NCBI GenBank assembly: GCA_044892505.1
Contig: CM097883.1
Span: 197,160,001-197,224,000 of the forward strand
Source: Schmidtea nova
Taxonomy: Eukaryota
Length of the DNA stretch: 64,000 bases
Direction of reading: 5' to 3'
Part shown: piece by piece, positions 47,613 through 62,335 of the stretch
How the letters are laid out: each line of letters begins with the position of its first letter
How positions within the stretch are numbered: the first letter of the stretch is position 1
Made by a program: the position numbers and the translations under genes
The notes under the pieces: model-generated
Databases searched by the model: none
What the model was told of the DNA's origin: nothing
What the model saw: only the letters and a program-made list of their open reading frames with translations

Positions 47613-50600
47613 TGGTGGGTTGTTGATCGTCAATATGACCTTGACGTTTCTATGGCTCTCATCAACAACTCAACACATAAAACATTTAAACTACCATCTT
47701 GTTACCCGTCACTATGTAACGTTGGTACTGTAACAAGTGGGTGGGTATTCGCAATCAGTGAGCGTCGTCAATACGAAACTATGATTGACCGAATATCTCC
47801 TGGGTCCAAGGGCTACCGATAGAAGGTTTAATGCCCATTTTGTCCCTCCTTTAATGATTGATCTATAAGCATTCAACAAAATTTTATCGGAAATTCAACA
47901 TAAACACTCTACACAACTATAAATTCATTATTGCATCCAACTAAATTATTTCGAGCATCAAAAACACTAATATAACCCTATTTTTACCAATATTGCATTT
48001 TATGATAATTAATACATAAAATATTATATTTTTATAGAAAAATTTTAATCTGCATTTGAAATTTAAGAAAAATTTTAATTATTACCGTAATTTAATCCAG
48101 TTTAGAAATAATAAAAATAAAATTTCCGTTTGTTTAAAATTGCTAATTTAATCAAAAGGACAAATTTACTCAATTTAAAAATCATATTAATTTTAAATGT
48201 AATTTTCTGAATTTTTCAATAAATTGATAAATTAACGATTTCTATAGTTCAGATCAACAAGAAATGGACCTCTCCAGAAACTACGAAACCAGAGGAAAAT
48301 TCTCCCACCCCAAACGGGTCAATCCAATTAGAACTCGAGCTCCTATGAAGCAAAATAGCCCGCTCTACCAACCAAGTAAAATTTTGATTATTTCAGAATT
48401 ATAATTTATTTTGAACAATTTTAGAAAATTTCTTGAAGAGAATATGTTGGAACTGGCCCTTCAAGCATTGTAAACCGGAAAAAAATCCTTGCCGGGGACT
48501 CTTATCCCTCAAACTGAATTTTTATCAATAAATCTTTAGATAAAAATTTTTTTCGTCTTTACTCTTTTTCGTTTGAGTTTTTATTATTTTTATGAAATTT
48601 TTGTAAATTAAAAATAAACTGTAATGTAAATGGCCTATTTGGCTGGGTAAATTCAATTTTATATGGTAGGTTTGAATGATAGAAATTTTTGTATGGTTTT
48701 TCTGGATGTATGTTGCCGACTAACATAACTGTGTAGAATTTTCAGTATGGTTTGCTTGTGTGTATATAACTATTGAATGCTAATAAATGGTACTGTGTAT
48801 GTGTGTTTATTGTATTTTAAATATATGTTGCTTGTGTATTAGTATGGGAAATGTTATTGAATGAAATGGATGTAATTTTTTGCAAATAGGGATGCATTAT
48901 GATTTTTGAGATATCGTGGGGGTATTTATAATATATATATATATAAATTATATAAAATATTTTTAAAATTAAAATAATAATAATAATTTTTATATTAAAA
49001 TAATAATAATAATAATACTTTTTATAAATTTTAGATTTATAATTTTTATGAAGTAATATAATAATAAAATTTCCAATTTTTATATCATAAATTTTTATAA
49101 TACTTTTTATAAATTTTAGTTTTATAATTTTATGAAAATAATACAATAATAAAATTCCTAATTTTTATATTATAAATTTTTATAATGCTTTTTATAATTT
49201 TAATAATATAATAATACCATTTCTAATTTTTATAATATGAATTTTTATATTCGAATTTTTATATTTTAAGTATATATATATATAGTAAAAAAAATTTTTC
49301 CTATAGAATTTTGAAATTTTGGATTTTTTTGAAATGATAAAATTTTCAATATACTAATAATATTTTCGATTTAAAATTTTTATGGGTTTCAATATAAGTT
49401 TTGATTTATAAATTCTTAGGAATTTTATAAAATGACAAAATCTTTTATATCATAACAATATTCGGAGAATTTTTGGTTCACAATTATTCATTATAAAAAT
49501 TTTCCAATATAATAAAAAGTAAATTTTTATTTTTTGATCGAAACGAAATTCACATAATAATAAATTTTTCATCCATAAATTTCGAAATCTAAATAAGCAT
49601 TTAATCTAAAAAATTTTATATGCTAAATAAAAATAAAATAAAAATAAGTTATAAATTTTTCAACGAATATTTCCAACATCGAGTAAAGTAAATCTCGGTT
49701 TCGTCCGAGCATGAATTTCCCAATCAAAGTGCGCGCGAAATTTTCGGGACACTTCACTTAGGAACTTCAGGCTCCCGAAAACAAGATTTACCAGAGAAAA
49801 ATTATTTATATAATAAACGGGGTTTAATTCAGATCATCAACACTTGTCCTAATAATTCATTTCATTTCGAAATCATTATATCAGTTTCGAGCATTATTTC
49901 ATGTGATTCTTTTTCCAACATTAGCTTCCATTGACTTGCGCTTTCGGATAAGATGATAGATGTTGCGAGAGTGAAGGCGACGACGAGTAAACCGTCCTTG
50001 TACAATTAATTTTCCTAATGGAAAAGACGTTACTGGATAGATTTGTCTTCACGTTTTCATGTAGTATTAATTTTCAATATATTAAAATTATAAATTCGGA
50101 TAAGCTACATTTATTATAAATAAATATCATTAATATAACACCTTGCCTTGGGCCAAGCCACTGTTCCCCAGTTGGGATGAAGTGATCTTGGATGGTTAGG
50201 CTATTCACCTGAACTCGGAAAAATGGACTGATCGATTTACGTATCGAACCAGCGATCCGCTCAGGCTACTTCCACCCGATCGGCACAAGGCCAGACACAG
50301 GCTTCAGGGGGTATGGAAAAAAAATTTTTTTATTTAGATACTTTTATCATTTATTAAGATAATATTGTGAATTTAATTCTCTGAGATTTTGTGACAAACA
50401 ACAAAAACAAAAAAAAATTATTAGTAAATATTTTAATATTCATTCAATAAAAATATCATAGCAATAATAATATAAAATTATAAAAATATTACCGGTACGG
50501 GGTAATCGAACAGGCATGGTGTTCGATGACCCCGCGCCAACAAAAGAATAGGACTTACGAAATCAAAATTTACAAGCTTTCTTGAAAAAATTTCACAAAA

Positions 50601-51243
50601 TTCTGAAAAATTCCATTTTGATGGCGGTATATATACCATCGATTTTGCGTTACCTTCAGTAGTGTAATAAAACAAATTGTTCTAGAATTTTCCATTTAAT
50701 TTTTCTAAATTAATTCTAATGATTTTCCAAAAATTAAATCCATATTTTTGTGTAATAATTTTTTATAAAACACAAATAATTTATTTTAATCCAAAATTTT
50801 TATTTTTGAATCGAAATTTGTTCGATTTAATTTAATTTACGATATTTCAATCAATATTAATTCTTTTTATTGTTAATGTGAAATATTTTGCTAAAATCAC
50901 AATTTTCGGCTAAAAGTCTGTTAATTTTTTTCTGCATGAAGGTTTTATAACACAATTCCGTTGTTTATGGGTATTTTCAATGGGTTTTCCGCCTATTCTA
51001 ACTTTTAAACGTTCTTCTTTTGACGGCATTTGATTTTTCTCTAGGTTTCAATGTAAGGGCTTTCGGACTCACAGCTAGCGCGTTCTCTACTGGTTGATGT
51101 GTTTTGAGTTTACTTCACCTTTTGTTGTTTTTCACTTAATCGTTTCGATTTTTAATGGATATTTGGGTTAAAACTGAATCTTGCGCGCTCTCTACCTATG
51201 GGGTTATCGCTCCGTTAAAACAATTTGTGGTTTTTGCCCAACA
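47613..51243 (-). repeat. 5' LTR, 3631 bp
   Basis: Near-identical to 33506-37145; followed by the PBS. Confidence 0.9.
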
Positions 51244-59800: not shown

Positions 59801-62335
59801 AATCACCCCTACACTCATCAATATTTTATCGTCTATTTGAATTAACACAGCGGCTAAGAGTTTGTCAAAGGGAAACTCAACGTGATTCGAATGATAAGTG
59901 TGTATATCCCAATGTAGTTTTCGACCCAAATCGGAAAAAGTTATTTAGACAGAAGAGGACTTAATACGAGGTATAAAATAATCTGCGATGTAATGGTACT
60001 TTATCATTAATACTATTATATTAATCTTTCATCGCCTTAATACTACTACATTAGTATGATCACGTCAAGGTATTATATTATCAAAGTTTTTATTATTTAA
60101 ATAAAAAGCTCCTATATATATAAATGTGCTTGTAGATAGGTGGACATTAATTAAGATAACTTCAAAATTTGAATAAAACGCATTGTGTCAAAGCTATCAA
60201 GAAATCATTTGAAAACTACCCGTTTTCACATGTAGTCTCAATTTAACCACAGTTCATAAAAATAAAATTTTAATTCCTAAACATATTACGCAAACATAGA
60301 AAATAAAAGTGAATATAAACTAAAAATTTATTAAAATGAAATAAAATTAATCAAAATTCATGAATGATATGGTCAAAAAATTCCAATTTACCAATACTGA
60401 TGATCTAATAACTTCCAACGTTGAAATCGAAATAAAATTCACAATAAAGAATAATAAGATCTGACATGGAATTAGAACCATTTTTGAGAATCATTTTCAT
60501 TCGAAAATCGTTTTCTTCCATAGGTAAAGACAACCGACAATCCAGAGTGGAAGAATTGTCCTAAGTAAATTCGATAATGTTATAAAATAAATGGAATAAT
60601 ACCAAATTACCTGTAAATCTTGTCCAAGAGGGAAAACTCGAATTTCGCTGTTGCTAAAAATAAGTGTCTAAAATCGATAAAACACTAATATAATAAATAA
60701 AATTTAATAGTATAAATTACCCAATGAGAATCGTTTAATTTAGAAATCCGTATATGTAGTTTTCTTCTTTTGAGGGGGAACAGCCTTATTTTCAGGGGTA
60801 TCCGGACTAGATTTGAATTTCCTAAAATAAAATTTAATTTAGAATCTGAAAATATAGGAATTAACTAAAATTAATAGATTATAATTAAATTAAACTTACT
60901 AAATATTTAAGCAGCTTATATTGATACCGTTGTTAAGGCCTCGGTGAAAATTTAAATATAAATTTATTGAAAATTTTAAAAATAAAATTCATCAAATTTC
61001 CATTAAATAAGCAAGTTAGACATTAGGTATAGGGGATTAAACATATTAGCTCGGGTTTTAACGAAAGGAAAAGTCCAAAAAATCGAAAATTTTCAATCAA
61101 TAGGCCTTTAAACACAAACAATTAAAATCAAACACTGACGGATAAAGATTTTTCTTTTGATTTCCCGAGTTGAGGCTCGATGGGCATACCCATGGAGGAT
61201 TCATGGTCCAATATGTGTTTTAGAGATTTTTTATGAATAATGCTATATGCTATAATGGTTGTGCAGCAGCTACGCTCGACAATTACTAAATGTTAACATA
61301 ATTTTAGAAAATGAACCCAATGCAACAGCTCGAGGAGATCCGTGCGTTATTACTGGAAAACGCAAAACATAACAAAAAGGTCGACGCACGGTTGGCCGAA
61401 CTGGAGGCCAAGGGCGCATCCAACTCAGATGCCCTCCAGATAATGACCGGACGTATGGAAAAATTCCGGGCCCGCTGTCGCGAGATGGAGGCGACATGGT
61501 CCGATGGGGAGACGGTGGATCGGCTCAAAAAACAAAATCAGATGCTGATGCAACAGGCCGCCGAGGATGCCATGCGATTGCGGGCGTGTCGGGTCTCCAT
61601 GCGGGAGCAGGAACTCGCCAATCAAAAACTGCAGGTGGACAGTGGCCTCATAGCGGCCATTCTACCCAAACCTCAAATCCCACCTCAAGAAATGTTCCCG
61701 GTGAGGGTGGAGGAGGAAATTGCAGCAGCCGCGGCTCCAACCAAACCGAAAAGATGGAGGCCCAGTAAAGGGACAAGGGCCAGAAACAAGCGCCGACAAG
61801 AAGCGCGAGTATTGGGACAATTGAGGGTCGAGGCCTCAAAAATCGGCGGCTTGTCTATCGACCTGACCCAGACACATTTTTGATTGATTTTGTAGTGATT
61901 TTTGCAGTAAATGTTGTTATTTTTATGATATTATTATAAGTTTGTAATTAGTTTTCTTTTGTATGATTGCATGGAGATAAAGATAAATATAAAAATATTT
62001 AAATACATTGATTAAGTAATAAACAAATCACAGTCGGCGAAAATATTCAAATAAAAATCTCGAATGAAGAATCCACAGTGATAGAGCAGATAAATTAAGA
62101 GGGACAAAAATGGGCAAGAAACCTTCCATCGGTAGCCCTTGGACCCAGGAGATATTCGGTCAATCATAGTTTCGTATTGACGACGCTCACTGATTGCGAA
62201 TACCCACCCACTTGTTACAGTACCAACGTTACATAGTGACGGGTACCAAGGTGGTAATTTCAATGTTTTATGTGTTGAGTTGTTGATGAGAGCCATAGAA
62301 ACGTCAAGGTCATATTGACGGTCAACAACCCACCA
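56860..62335 (+). mobile_element. Solo giant LTR (copy C), 5476 bp
   Basis: TGTTGGG at 56860, CCCACCA at 62335, TSD TATG (56856-56859, 62336-62339); family blocks in collinear order. Confidence 0.85.
61311..61883 (+). CDS. 190-aa coiled-coil protein with a basic C-terminal patch, inside the solo LTR; function unknown
   Basis: Open from ATG to TGA, markedly GC-richer than its surroundings; heptad-like N-terminal half; KPKRWRPSKGTRARNKRR. Confidence 0.7.
   Translation: MNPMQQLEEIRALLLENAKHNKKVDARLAELEAKGASNSDALQIMTGRMEKFRARCREMEATWSDGETVDRLKKQNQMLMQQAAEDAMRLRACRVSMREQELANQKLQVDSGLIAAILPKPQIPPQEMFPVRVEEEIAAAAAPTKPKRWRPSKGTRARNKRRQEARVLGQLRVEASKIGGLSIDLTQTHF

Follow-up and report, generated by a model that had tools for sequence, protein, structure and literature searches.

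The 64-kb stretch of DNA analyzed here (the window) is best read as a set of nested LTR copies that belong to several diverged subfamilies within a single group of gypsy-type retrotransposons. In this group, which has very long LTRs, a variable U3 would be joined to a conserved R/U5 and exchanged at the first strand transfer, a known mechanism. We assign this explanation as a whole a probability of about 0.62. On this best reading, the differences between copies are mostly ordinary divergence, recombination, and nested insertion, with the ORF of copy C apart. The real oddity is that intact 190-codon ORF, for which our searches found no homolog, in a 5476-nt solo LTR with a 4-nt target duplication. 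The explanation rests on a sharp right edge under four kinds of upstream sequence, two partly homologous pairs of variable stretches, discordant trees, and one nested insertion. The initial annotation had proposed a hotspot that swaps cargo at a fixed position of the LTR. This is not supported: the left borders scatter, two pairs of contents are homologous, one content is a nested insertion, and two are not demonstrably coding. The C ORF is the only true cargo left. All comparisons concern the copies within the window.

The full element and its LTRs

The full element, on the minus strand, has the following parts.

33506..37145, minus strand: copy A, the 3′ LTR, with an N gap inside
47585..47602, minus strand: putative primer binding site (PBS), a TGG-starting 18-mer, 10 nt past the LTR end
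47613..51243, minus strand: copy B, the 5′ LTR, 3631 nt, ends TG...CA
47613..47855, minus strand: end module of B (putative R/U5); 5 differences from C in 190 columns, 22 from H
47856..48694, minus strand: variable stretch of B, 839 nt, noncoding; last 230 nt and first ~170 nt common to D
48695..48921, minus strand: CA-rich block of B; 39 differences from C in 227 columns

Copies A and B differ at four of 3502 aligned sites and form direct terminal repeats with TG...CA ends. The element is flanked by a 4-nt target duplication (ATAA), as expected of an LTR retrotransposon. Its PBS is presumably tRNA-Pro-like. The last ~65 nt of the B LTR fold as a stem reaching into the 10-nt spacer before the PBS (z only −1.6); a clear purine run (polypurine tract) was not seen directly before copy A. 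The element measures 17.7 kb, with an internal region of 10.5 kb and a longest ORF of 1345 aa. The C-terminal half of an integrase was recognized (27% identical to the gypsy pol of the window; rve E = 0.0017), followed by ankyrin, Fn3-like repeats, and a membrane helix; the predicted fold of the long ORF between residues 720 and 1200 has a pLDDT of 30 only. Neither RT nor gag was detected in the full element, with two N gaps inside the remaining sequence. The variable stretch had been described as ~0.85 kb without a long ORF, and this is confirmed: in its 839 nt (48694 to 47856) the longest stop-free frame has 57 codons. No Rfam family was found in the window, and the end-module pattern gave 0 matches in metagenome and viral contigs.

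Copy C and its ORF

Copy C is a complete solo LTR that sits in copy H.

56860..62335, plus strand: copy C, solo LTR, 5476 nt, TG...CA ends, 4-nt target duplication TATG
59615..62093, plus strand: variable stretch of C, 2479 nt
60927..61183, plus strand: block common to C and the relic at 29.5 kb, with two short conserved motifs at its borders
61311..61883, plus strand: C ORF, intact, 190 codons; predicted long N-terminal helices, proline-rich linker, basic C-terminal helix
62094..62335, plus strand: end module of C

The 190-aa ORF of the initial annotation is thus present and intact, in a stretch slightly longer than the 2.3 kb given there. It lies on the sense strand inside the complete LTR, upstream of the end module. 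Its composition is that of an outlier, with a GC content of 55% and a GC3 of 62% (vs. 34-38% and 28-38% in four other mobile-element ORFs of the window), and its codon periodicity was reached by none of 500 shuffles. Searches for homologs returned 0 of 490 candidates and 0 among 1.84 billion representatives (atlas best 0.86). In Pfam, all six matches are under the cut-off (best E = 0.014), and solved-structure sequences gave 0 matches. A single-sequence structure model has four long helices (mean pLDDT 70, pTM 0.28) and no match with E ≤ 0.001 in a viral fold library. The block at 60927-61183 is a candidate internal promoter or leader; the 18-nt motif there occurs twice in the window, vs. 0.01 expected. 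The sequence words of copy C are present at 42-45% in four sequencing runs of one study and at 6% in one soil run; no RNA run was among those listed.

Diverged copies, relics, and a nested element

The other copies are truncated, diverged, or interrupted.

27796..28023, minus strand: relic at 27.9 kb, diverged end module, 69-80% identical to B over 156 nt; the sequence before it is of a fourth kind
29459..30221, minus strand: relic at 29.5 kb, C-like block (30221-29968), followed by own sequence and by ~95 nt from the start of the end module
51275..53530, plus strand: copy D, truncated at both ends, stops after ~26 nt of the end module; AT-rich array, CA block (51791-52010, with a partial duplication as far as ~52250), D-specific sequence (52370-53270), B-like sequence (53271-53530)
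53530..56018, plus strand: strongly diverged LTR copy, labeled G here; GC block (53698-53930), CA block (54640-54812), then 1.2 kb of own sequence
56019..56208, minus strand: end module of copy H, first ~50 nt missing
56210..56530, minus strand: gag piece (Gag residues 1-107) from a different element, compact and gypsy-type
56530..56748, minus strand: 5′ LTR of this small element, 219 nt, TGTGATAT...ATATAACA, ends complementary at 7/8 as read from the sequence
62340..64000, minus strand: upstream part of copy H, 5′ module, GC block, and AT-rich array, running past the window edge

Copy D at 52500-53000 and the relic at 29545-30050 had been taken as decayed or coding-like sequence. Neither stands out from chance. 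The longest frame was matched by 148 of 300 dinucleotide shuffles in D and by 157 of 300 in the relic; codon periodicity was reached by 341 and 428 of 500, respectively. No Pfam match was found in either, with three sense frames each and X at stops. Nor is the D content wholly different from that of other copies, since its stretches 53271-53530 and 52226-52370 align with B. Past the hAT element, no continuation of the C-like block was found.

The plus-strand copy G scores 31 when compared with C, where 80 controls reach 23 at best. It is cut off by the insertion of copy H, and its end module is absent from the window. The reading of 54810-56018 as a variable stretch closed by the module at 56019-56208 was rejected because that module is part of copy H, on the other strand. 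No Pfam match and no coding signal were obtained for a gag-like phrase near 55920-56018. Judged by its content, the copy called G in the initial annotation would be copy H here, in which no CA block was found.

The cargo ascribed to that copy, a PBS plus a gag-like piece, does exist as a PBS-like motif and a gag piece (56529 to 56210, minus strand), but within a nested different element. The gag piece shares 73% identity with P0007, which has 561 aa, three CCHC knuckles, and a protease match; the longest contigs of its cluster of 10 members measure 520-10,141 nt, four of them 5189-5293 nt. In metagenome contigs, none of 114 pattern matches for P0007 was confirmed as a locus. A PBS-like motif, which we take to be for tRNA-Ser, stands at 56529 directly after the 219-nt LTR and overlaps the gag start codon. 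The PBS and gag of copy H are an ordinary nested insertion of a small gypsy element with its own LTR, cut by deletion. Nested insertion of an LTR retrotransposon followed by deletion also accounts, with no difference from the known process, for the order of C, H, and the plus-strand copy at 53530-56018.

Borders of the variable stretch

Different content at one fixed place, between the CA block and the 3′ module, had been claimed for every copy. Upstream of the ~240-nt end module the copies do differ; a fixed cargo slot is not found. The description holds for B and C but not for H, which without a CA block is joined to the module ~50 nt inside it (B coordinate 47802). The right edge is sharp, with three unrelated upstream sequences giving way to the module at a distance of 233-253 nt before the LTR end: the alignment of B with C, with the relic at 29.5 kb, and with that at 27.9 kb begins at 243, 253, and 233 nt, respectively. 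Measured from the end of the LTR, the right junctions lie at 190, 233, 243, 253, and 472 nt, which is not a single position. The left borders are scattered (96, 170, 220, 227, and ~400 nt past the CA-block anchor) and follow overall divergence. An AATAAA, a motif common in AT-rich DNA, occurs 26-89 nt upstream of the module in C, D, and both relics (4/5); B has only ATTAAA.

Of 14 comparisons between variable stretches, 12 were not above the best control from elsewhere in the window and two were above all controls. The contents are therefore not all unrelated to each other: two pairs align as diverged homologs, B with D at both ends and C with the relic at 29.5 kb over 260 nt, an outcome that the initial annotation itself had named as refuting its proposal. 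For D 53271-53530 the alignment is with B 48084-47826, at 77%; D 52226-52370 scores 31 with B 48652-48520, reached by 0 of 618 controls, in low-complexity sequence. C 60927-61183 scores 53 against 30221-29968 of the relic (best of 228 controls, 22). A homology between the B and C stretches was not retained. It reached z = 8.7 with lenient scoring and block shuffles, as a gappy alignment of 52-57%, and a strict score of 34 (control maximum 39), so that we make no claim either way on a deep homology of all stretches. Other linkers of the LTR also align badly (B-C 55-59% at 50508-50348). Several distinct genes were not found as cargo: there are one intact ORF and one nested gag piece, with D and the relic at 29.5 kb at shuffle level.

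Recombination between LTR lineages

In the end module, B and C differ at 5 of 190 sites (11 of 233 over the B-C end modules, 95-100% identical) and in the GC block at 62 of 209. With three copies compared, the site patterns are 45 B-odd, 9 C-odd, and 11 H-odd in the GC block, and 1, 3, and 20 in the end module. The two regions are discordant in ancestry (Fisher P = 1.2e-8 for these three copies only; P = 0.003 for the 5′ module against the end module), as expected of a mosaic LTR. The B-H divergence is 13% in the 5′ module and 12% in the end module; that of B-C is 11-30% elsewhere and falls to 2.6% in the end module. Slower evolution of the end module alone is therefore insufficient. Since the module trees disagree, LTR lineages have recombined at some point before the end module; inside the unalignable stretch, no position can be given for the crossover. 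A second hypervariable linker has its own breakpoint near B 50550 (maximum chi-square 46.7, 0 of 1000 permutations). Of the suggested recombination or template-switch hotspot, the recurrent right junction and the recombination between LTR lineages are supported; a swapping of cargo at a fixed position is not. Folding of the end module is not better than that of shuffles (z −1.2); the stems at the LTR end have z −1.0 to −2.7 in four copies and +1.1 in the old relic.

Alternative explanations

It is conceivable, though rather improbable, that the LTR bears an accessory-gene cassette in which the end module forms a unit with a replaceable ORF and a conserved internal promoter block, and that template switching at the edge of the module lets ORFs be captured and exchanged repeatedly. 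The recurrent right junction and the outlier composition and real codon periodicity of the C ORF would fit, as would the fact that C and the relic at 29.5 kb share a block and yet differ from there to the module. In addition, an antisense frame upstream of the relic at 27.9 kb has 110 codons and exceeds the longest frame of 296 of 300 shuffles; its codon periodicity, however, was reached by 200 of 500. Against this reading, the ORF of C is the single intact one, D and the relic at 29.5 kb lack a coding signal, the stretch of the youngest element (A/B) has no ORF, and the gag of H comes with its own LTR and PBS, like an insertion. Frames of the variable stretches have no protein similarity in 243 frame pairs (best z 4.7, caused by AT-rich text). 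At similarly long odds, the giant-LTR family would keep an exchangeable accessory-gene position in U3. A small foreign ORF would be transcribed there from a conserved internal promoter block, be copied into both LTRs, and remain expressible in each solo LTR left behind. Because it is located just upstream of R, the ORF would be swapped between subfamilies at the first strand transfer. The C protein, as modeled, would then be a basic coiled coil acting perhaps on host silencing or RNA packaging.

An explanation without any exchange linked to retrotransposition appears equally doubtful. The end module would be constrained, and the rest would drift after integration by indels, nested insertions, and deletions, with chromosomal gene conversion homogenizing the B and C modules and the ORF inserted later into C. 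Copy H carries just such damage, most copies are truncated, and the poor alignment of the other linkers agrees with it. Against it, four different upstream sequences reach the module at nearly one point, and no target duplication or terminal repeat surrounds the ORF or the C stretch among the repeats listed (five largest families of each kind). The block of C is also found in a relic 30 kb away; part of the C stretch is thus older than copy C. A misjoining of repeat copies at the near-identical end module of B and C, in an assembly with four N gaps in the window, three of them in the full element, is very improbable: the target duplications match on C and on the full element, A and B have the same stretch independently, and the B and C modules do differ at 11 sites.

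We prefer the exchange of U3 at the first strand transfer. The variable stretch would form the 3′ portion of a long U3 and border directly on the end module, a short, constrained, putative R/U5. The stem at the LTR end and the AATAAA motifs before the module agree with this. Minus-strand strong-stop DNA made from the RNA of one subfamily would jump to the RNA of another and join one U3 to another R/U5, near the same point every time. Each U3 would then evolve fast and be inherited along with its subfamily. The C lineage would at some time have gained a compositionally foreign ORF in its U3 and preserved it intact, with expression probably driven by the internal block at 60927-61183 or relying on a splice acceptor just before the ATG.

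Comparison with known systems

In intermolecular first transfer, the R/U5 of one RNA is merged with the U3 of another (PMC6894440), and most LTR recombinants of Onsen are described as fitting it (PMC5668417). The mosaic LTRs of Ty1 and Onsen/COPIA78, as far as these accounts go, likewise join the U3 of one lineage to the R/U5 of another at a recurrent point (PMC6894440, PMC5668417). Here, in contrast, divergence between the partners amounts to 11-30% outside the module, the LTRs measure 3.6-5.5 kb, and the R boundaries are putative. A similar case of mosaic LTRs in soybean is reportedly named "LTR swapping." The subfamilies of Tnt1 are alike in being grouped by different U3 modules (PMC1838419); Tnt1 differs as a copia-type plant element with short LTRs, and the portion of that paper available to us mentions no U3 ORF (PMC1838419). 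Diversification of U3 and its reshuffling against R/U5 is an already known mechanism.

The gene inside an LTR is the part of interest; solo LTRs normally keep only a promoter. Giant gypsy elements resemble the one here in their very long LTRs (1.9-6.5 kb in the plant Ogre) and in having accessory domains, ankyrin and RING among them; the planarian Burro has one gag-env-pol ORF of ~4900 aa and an internal region of up to 25 kb (PMC6431247). The full element here, with its 10.5-kb internal region, 1345-aa ORF, and no RT, does not match Burro; it may be a deleted derivative with kinship to it. LTR elements of rotifers carry extra, family-specific ORFs (PMC5408684). In the accounts available for Burro, Ogre, and rotifer elements, the extra ORFs lie in the internal region and not within the LTR (PMC6431247, PMC5408684), where the C ORF is found. 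Exact-phrase searching of open papers returned none that combines all the terms for an ORF inside the LTR of a gypsy element. With an intact orphan ORF, a solo LTR of 5.5 kb would carry the gene along at each insertion and retain it once the internal genes are gone. Retroviral genes in U3 are known in vertebrate retroviruses, with HIV nef and MMTV sag in LTRs of 0.6-1.3 kb. Without a sequence or fold match to either in the searches made, the C ORF has the same position as these: a small accessory ORF in the LTR, upstream of R and in sense.

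Arrangement of the LTR copies

The window is eukaryotic repeat DNA, rich in AT and interrupted by four N gaps. Its giant LTRs consist of a 5′ module, a GC block, an AT-rich array, a CA block, a slot of variable sequence and a conserved end module (the 3′ ~240 nt). The copies and neighboring elements are as follows.

17.7 kb, minus: full element (5′ LTR B, internal region, 3′ LTR A), with a 4-nt ATAA duplication on both sides
51243→47613, minus: 5′ LTR B
37145→33506, minus: 3′ LTR A
10 bases past the end of B: PBS-like 18-mer beginning with TGG
51275–53530, plus: copy D, a related LTR
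53530–56018, plus: copy G as named here, a diverged related LTR
end at 56019, extending past 64000, minus: copy H
56860–62335, plus: copy C, a 5.5-kb solo LTR with TATG on either side, inserted within H
29459–30221 and 27796–28023: relics 29.5k and 27.9k, two further related LTR copies
7630–11990, minus: intact gypsy gag-pol
12630–14900, minus: second pol, decayed
31080–32340, plus: hAT-like transposase (DUF4371), adjoining relic 29.5k

LTRs A and B differ at four of 3,502 aligned sites. The 18-mer presumably resembles tRNA-Pro. No clear polypurine tract is seen at the inner LTR flanks (37146–37175, minus); these flanks (47603–47612 and 37146–37175, minus) are alike as inverted sequences, with an A-rich run and then a G run. 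Because neither RT nor gag was found in it, the full element is apparently non-autonomous, although identity between its LTRs is 99.9%.

In a 1,345-aa ORF of that element (38271–42308, minus), the C-terminal half of an integrase is fused to ankyrin repeats; after these come an acidic linker and four Fn3-like repeats, for which Pfam fn3 gives a single weak match (E = 2.6e-5), and the C-terminus is a hydrophobic helix. The product has the look of an unusual pol fusion with a membrane anchor; searches for homologues gave generic ankyrin matches only. The 5′ internal region (42300–47600) has a C3HC4 RING-finger frame (44267–44614, minus; E = 1e-12), and a tandem array of 21/47-nt units occupies 42987–43342.

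Borders of the slot

The initial annotation placed the slot at one fixed position. On the right, the edge is a real boundary: alignment to B begins 243 nt from the LTR end in C, 253 in relic 29.5k and 233 in relic 27.9k, so that four types of upstream sequence, one each for B/D, C, relic 29.5k and relic 27.9k, reach the end module within 20 nt. In H and D, it begins at 190 and 472 nt. The left edge, however, is a gradual decay, with similarity lost past the CA-block start at 227 nt (B/C), 220 (C/D), 170 (D/G), 96 (C/G) and ~400 (B/D). Copy D (53530) and relic 29.5k (29459) both end less than 100 nt into the end module, where A/T-rich sequence follows; this shared stop might reflect a poly(A) site or coincidence.

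Contents of the slot

Slot sequences are partly related. Among 14 slot-versus-slot comparisons, 12 fall inside the range of control windows and two lie above every control. The B and D slots share their last 230 nt (77% identity) and probably their first ~170 nt (low-complexity; none of 618 controls as high); they differ only in their middles, where 30 of 80 controls score as high. C and relic 29.5k have 260 nt in common (score 53, vs. 22 for the best of 228 controls), bounded by an 18-nt motif (two occurrences in the window vs. 0.01 expected) and an 11-nt motif (exactly two). An apparent B/C homology (z = 8.7 in a lenient test) is lost under stricter scoring.

As described initially, the B slot (~0.85 kb) has no long ORF (839 non-coding bases from CA block to end module), and that of C, measured at 2,479 bases, holds an intact 190-codon ORF. 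This ORF looks real, since its codon periodicity is equalled by 0/500 dinucleotide shuffles and its length by 6/300. Its GC content is high (55% overall and 62% at third positions); four other mobile-element ORFs of the window have 34–38% and 28–38%. Database searches returned no homologue. The coding-like frames reported in D and at relic 29.5k do not stand out: shuffles do equally well for length (148/300 and 157/300) and periodicity (341/500 and 428/500), and one of six 150-nt windows is marginal in each (shuffles 2/100 and 5/100). Old, frameshifted genes can lose such signals, and a coding origin is therefore kept as unproven; a 570-nt control from the full element's own long ORF also failed (92/500). 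Upstream of relic 27.9k (28024–29458), a 110-codon frame (28859–29191, plus) exceeds the longest in 296/300 shuffles; codon periodicity is lacking in this frame, and no Pfam match reaches the cut-off.

The PBS and gag piece assigned initially to a copy G (taken to be H, because H contains them) are present, as a nested insertion and not as cargo. Positions 56530→56210 encode Gag residues 1–107, 73% identical to P0007, a 561-aa protein that has CCHC knuckles as well as a match to a protease. Immediately 5′ lie 219 nt whose TG...CA termini are complementary at 7/8 bases; a PBS-like motif follows and overlaps the gag ATG. Within 56505–56535 (minus), the start codon comprises the last LTR base and the first two PBS bases. 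Together they form the 5′ terminus of a small gypsy-type element, distinct from H, that lies in the AT-rich array of H as an insertion. A later deletion took the rest of it, with the CA block and slot of H and the first ~50 nt of its end module. At the gag/end-module junction P0007 has K-I-L, codons that could have a few bases in common with the end module.

Origin of the junction

Three copies (B, C and H) were compared for recombination. Differences for B–C, B–H and C–H are 32, 37 and 50 in the 5′ module (288 columns), 62, 64 and 28 in the GC block (209 columns) and 5, 22 and 24 in the end module (190 columns). C thus groups with H in the GC block and B with C in the end module (p = 1.2e-8). 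B and H diverge to a similar degree in the 5′ and end modules, and a slower rate alone therefore does not explain the B–C identity. A second switch near B 50550, reached by 0/1000 permutations, falls in a further linker that aligns poorly; mosaic structure is seen at more than one point of the LTR. This hypervariable linker (B 50350–50590, C 57500–58080) separates the 5′ module from the GC block.

The window shows that the right edge is sharp, that LTR ancestry is mosaic, that some slots are partly homologous and that one insertion is nested. The end module probably corresponds to R/U5. AATAAA occurs 26–89 nt 5′ of it in four of five copies; its last ~65 nt can pair as a stem reaching into the pre-PBS spacer, with folding not clearly above shuffles. 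When strong-stop DNA is transferred between molecules, R/U5 from one RNA becomes joined to the U3 of another (PMC6894440); most Onsen LTR recombinants are consistent with this step (PMC5668417), and Tnt1 groups are distinguished by U3 (PMC1838419). Such transfer between RNAs would join one U3 to another R/U5, and would therefore give a recurrent junction without any special hotspot. We favor this origin, at a probability of roughly 0.62. A true exchangeable gene cassette in the LTR, with the C ORF on its side and the D and relic frames against it, seems unlikely. Decay after insertion together with gene conversion is likewise improbable, and mis-assembly highly so.

Comparison with known systems

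Known processes mostly explain the variable slot. The part worth pursuit, known from one copy, is that a 5.5-kb solo LTR carries an intact orphan ORF. In HIV and MMTV, genes are located in U3. Exact-phrase searches of mainly open-access papers turned up none that combined every term, either for an ORF located inside the LTR of a gypsy element or for ankyrin with fibronectin in such an element. Ogre and Burro have long LTRs and extra domains (PMC6431247), and rotifer elements extra ORFs (PMC5408684). The extra ORFs described there are internal, whereas the ORF of C lies inside the LTR.
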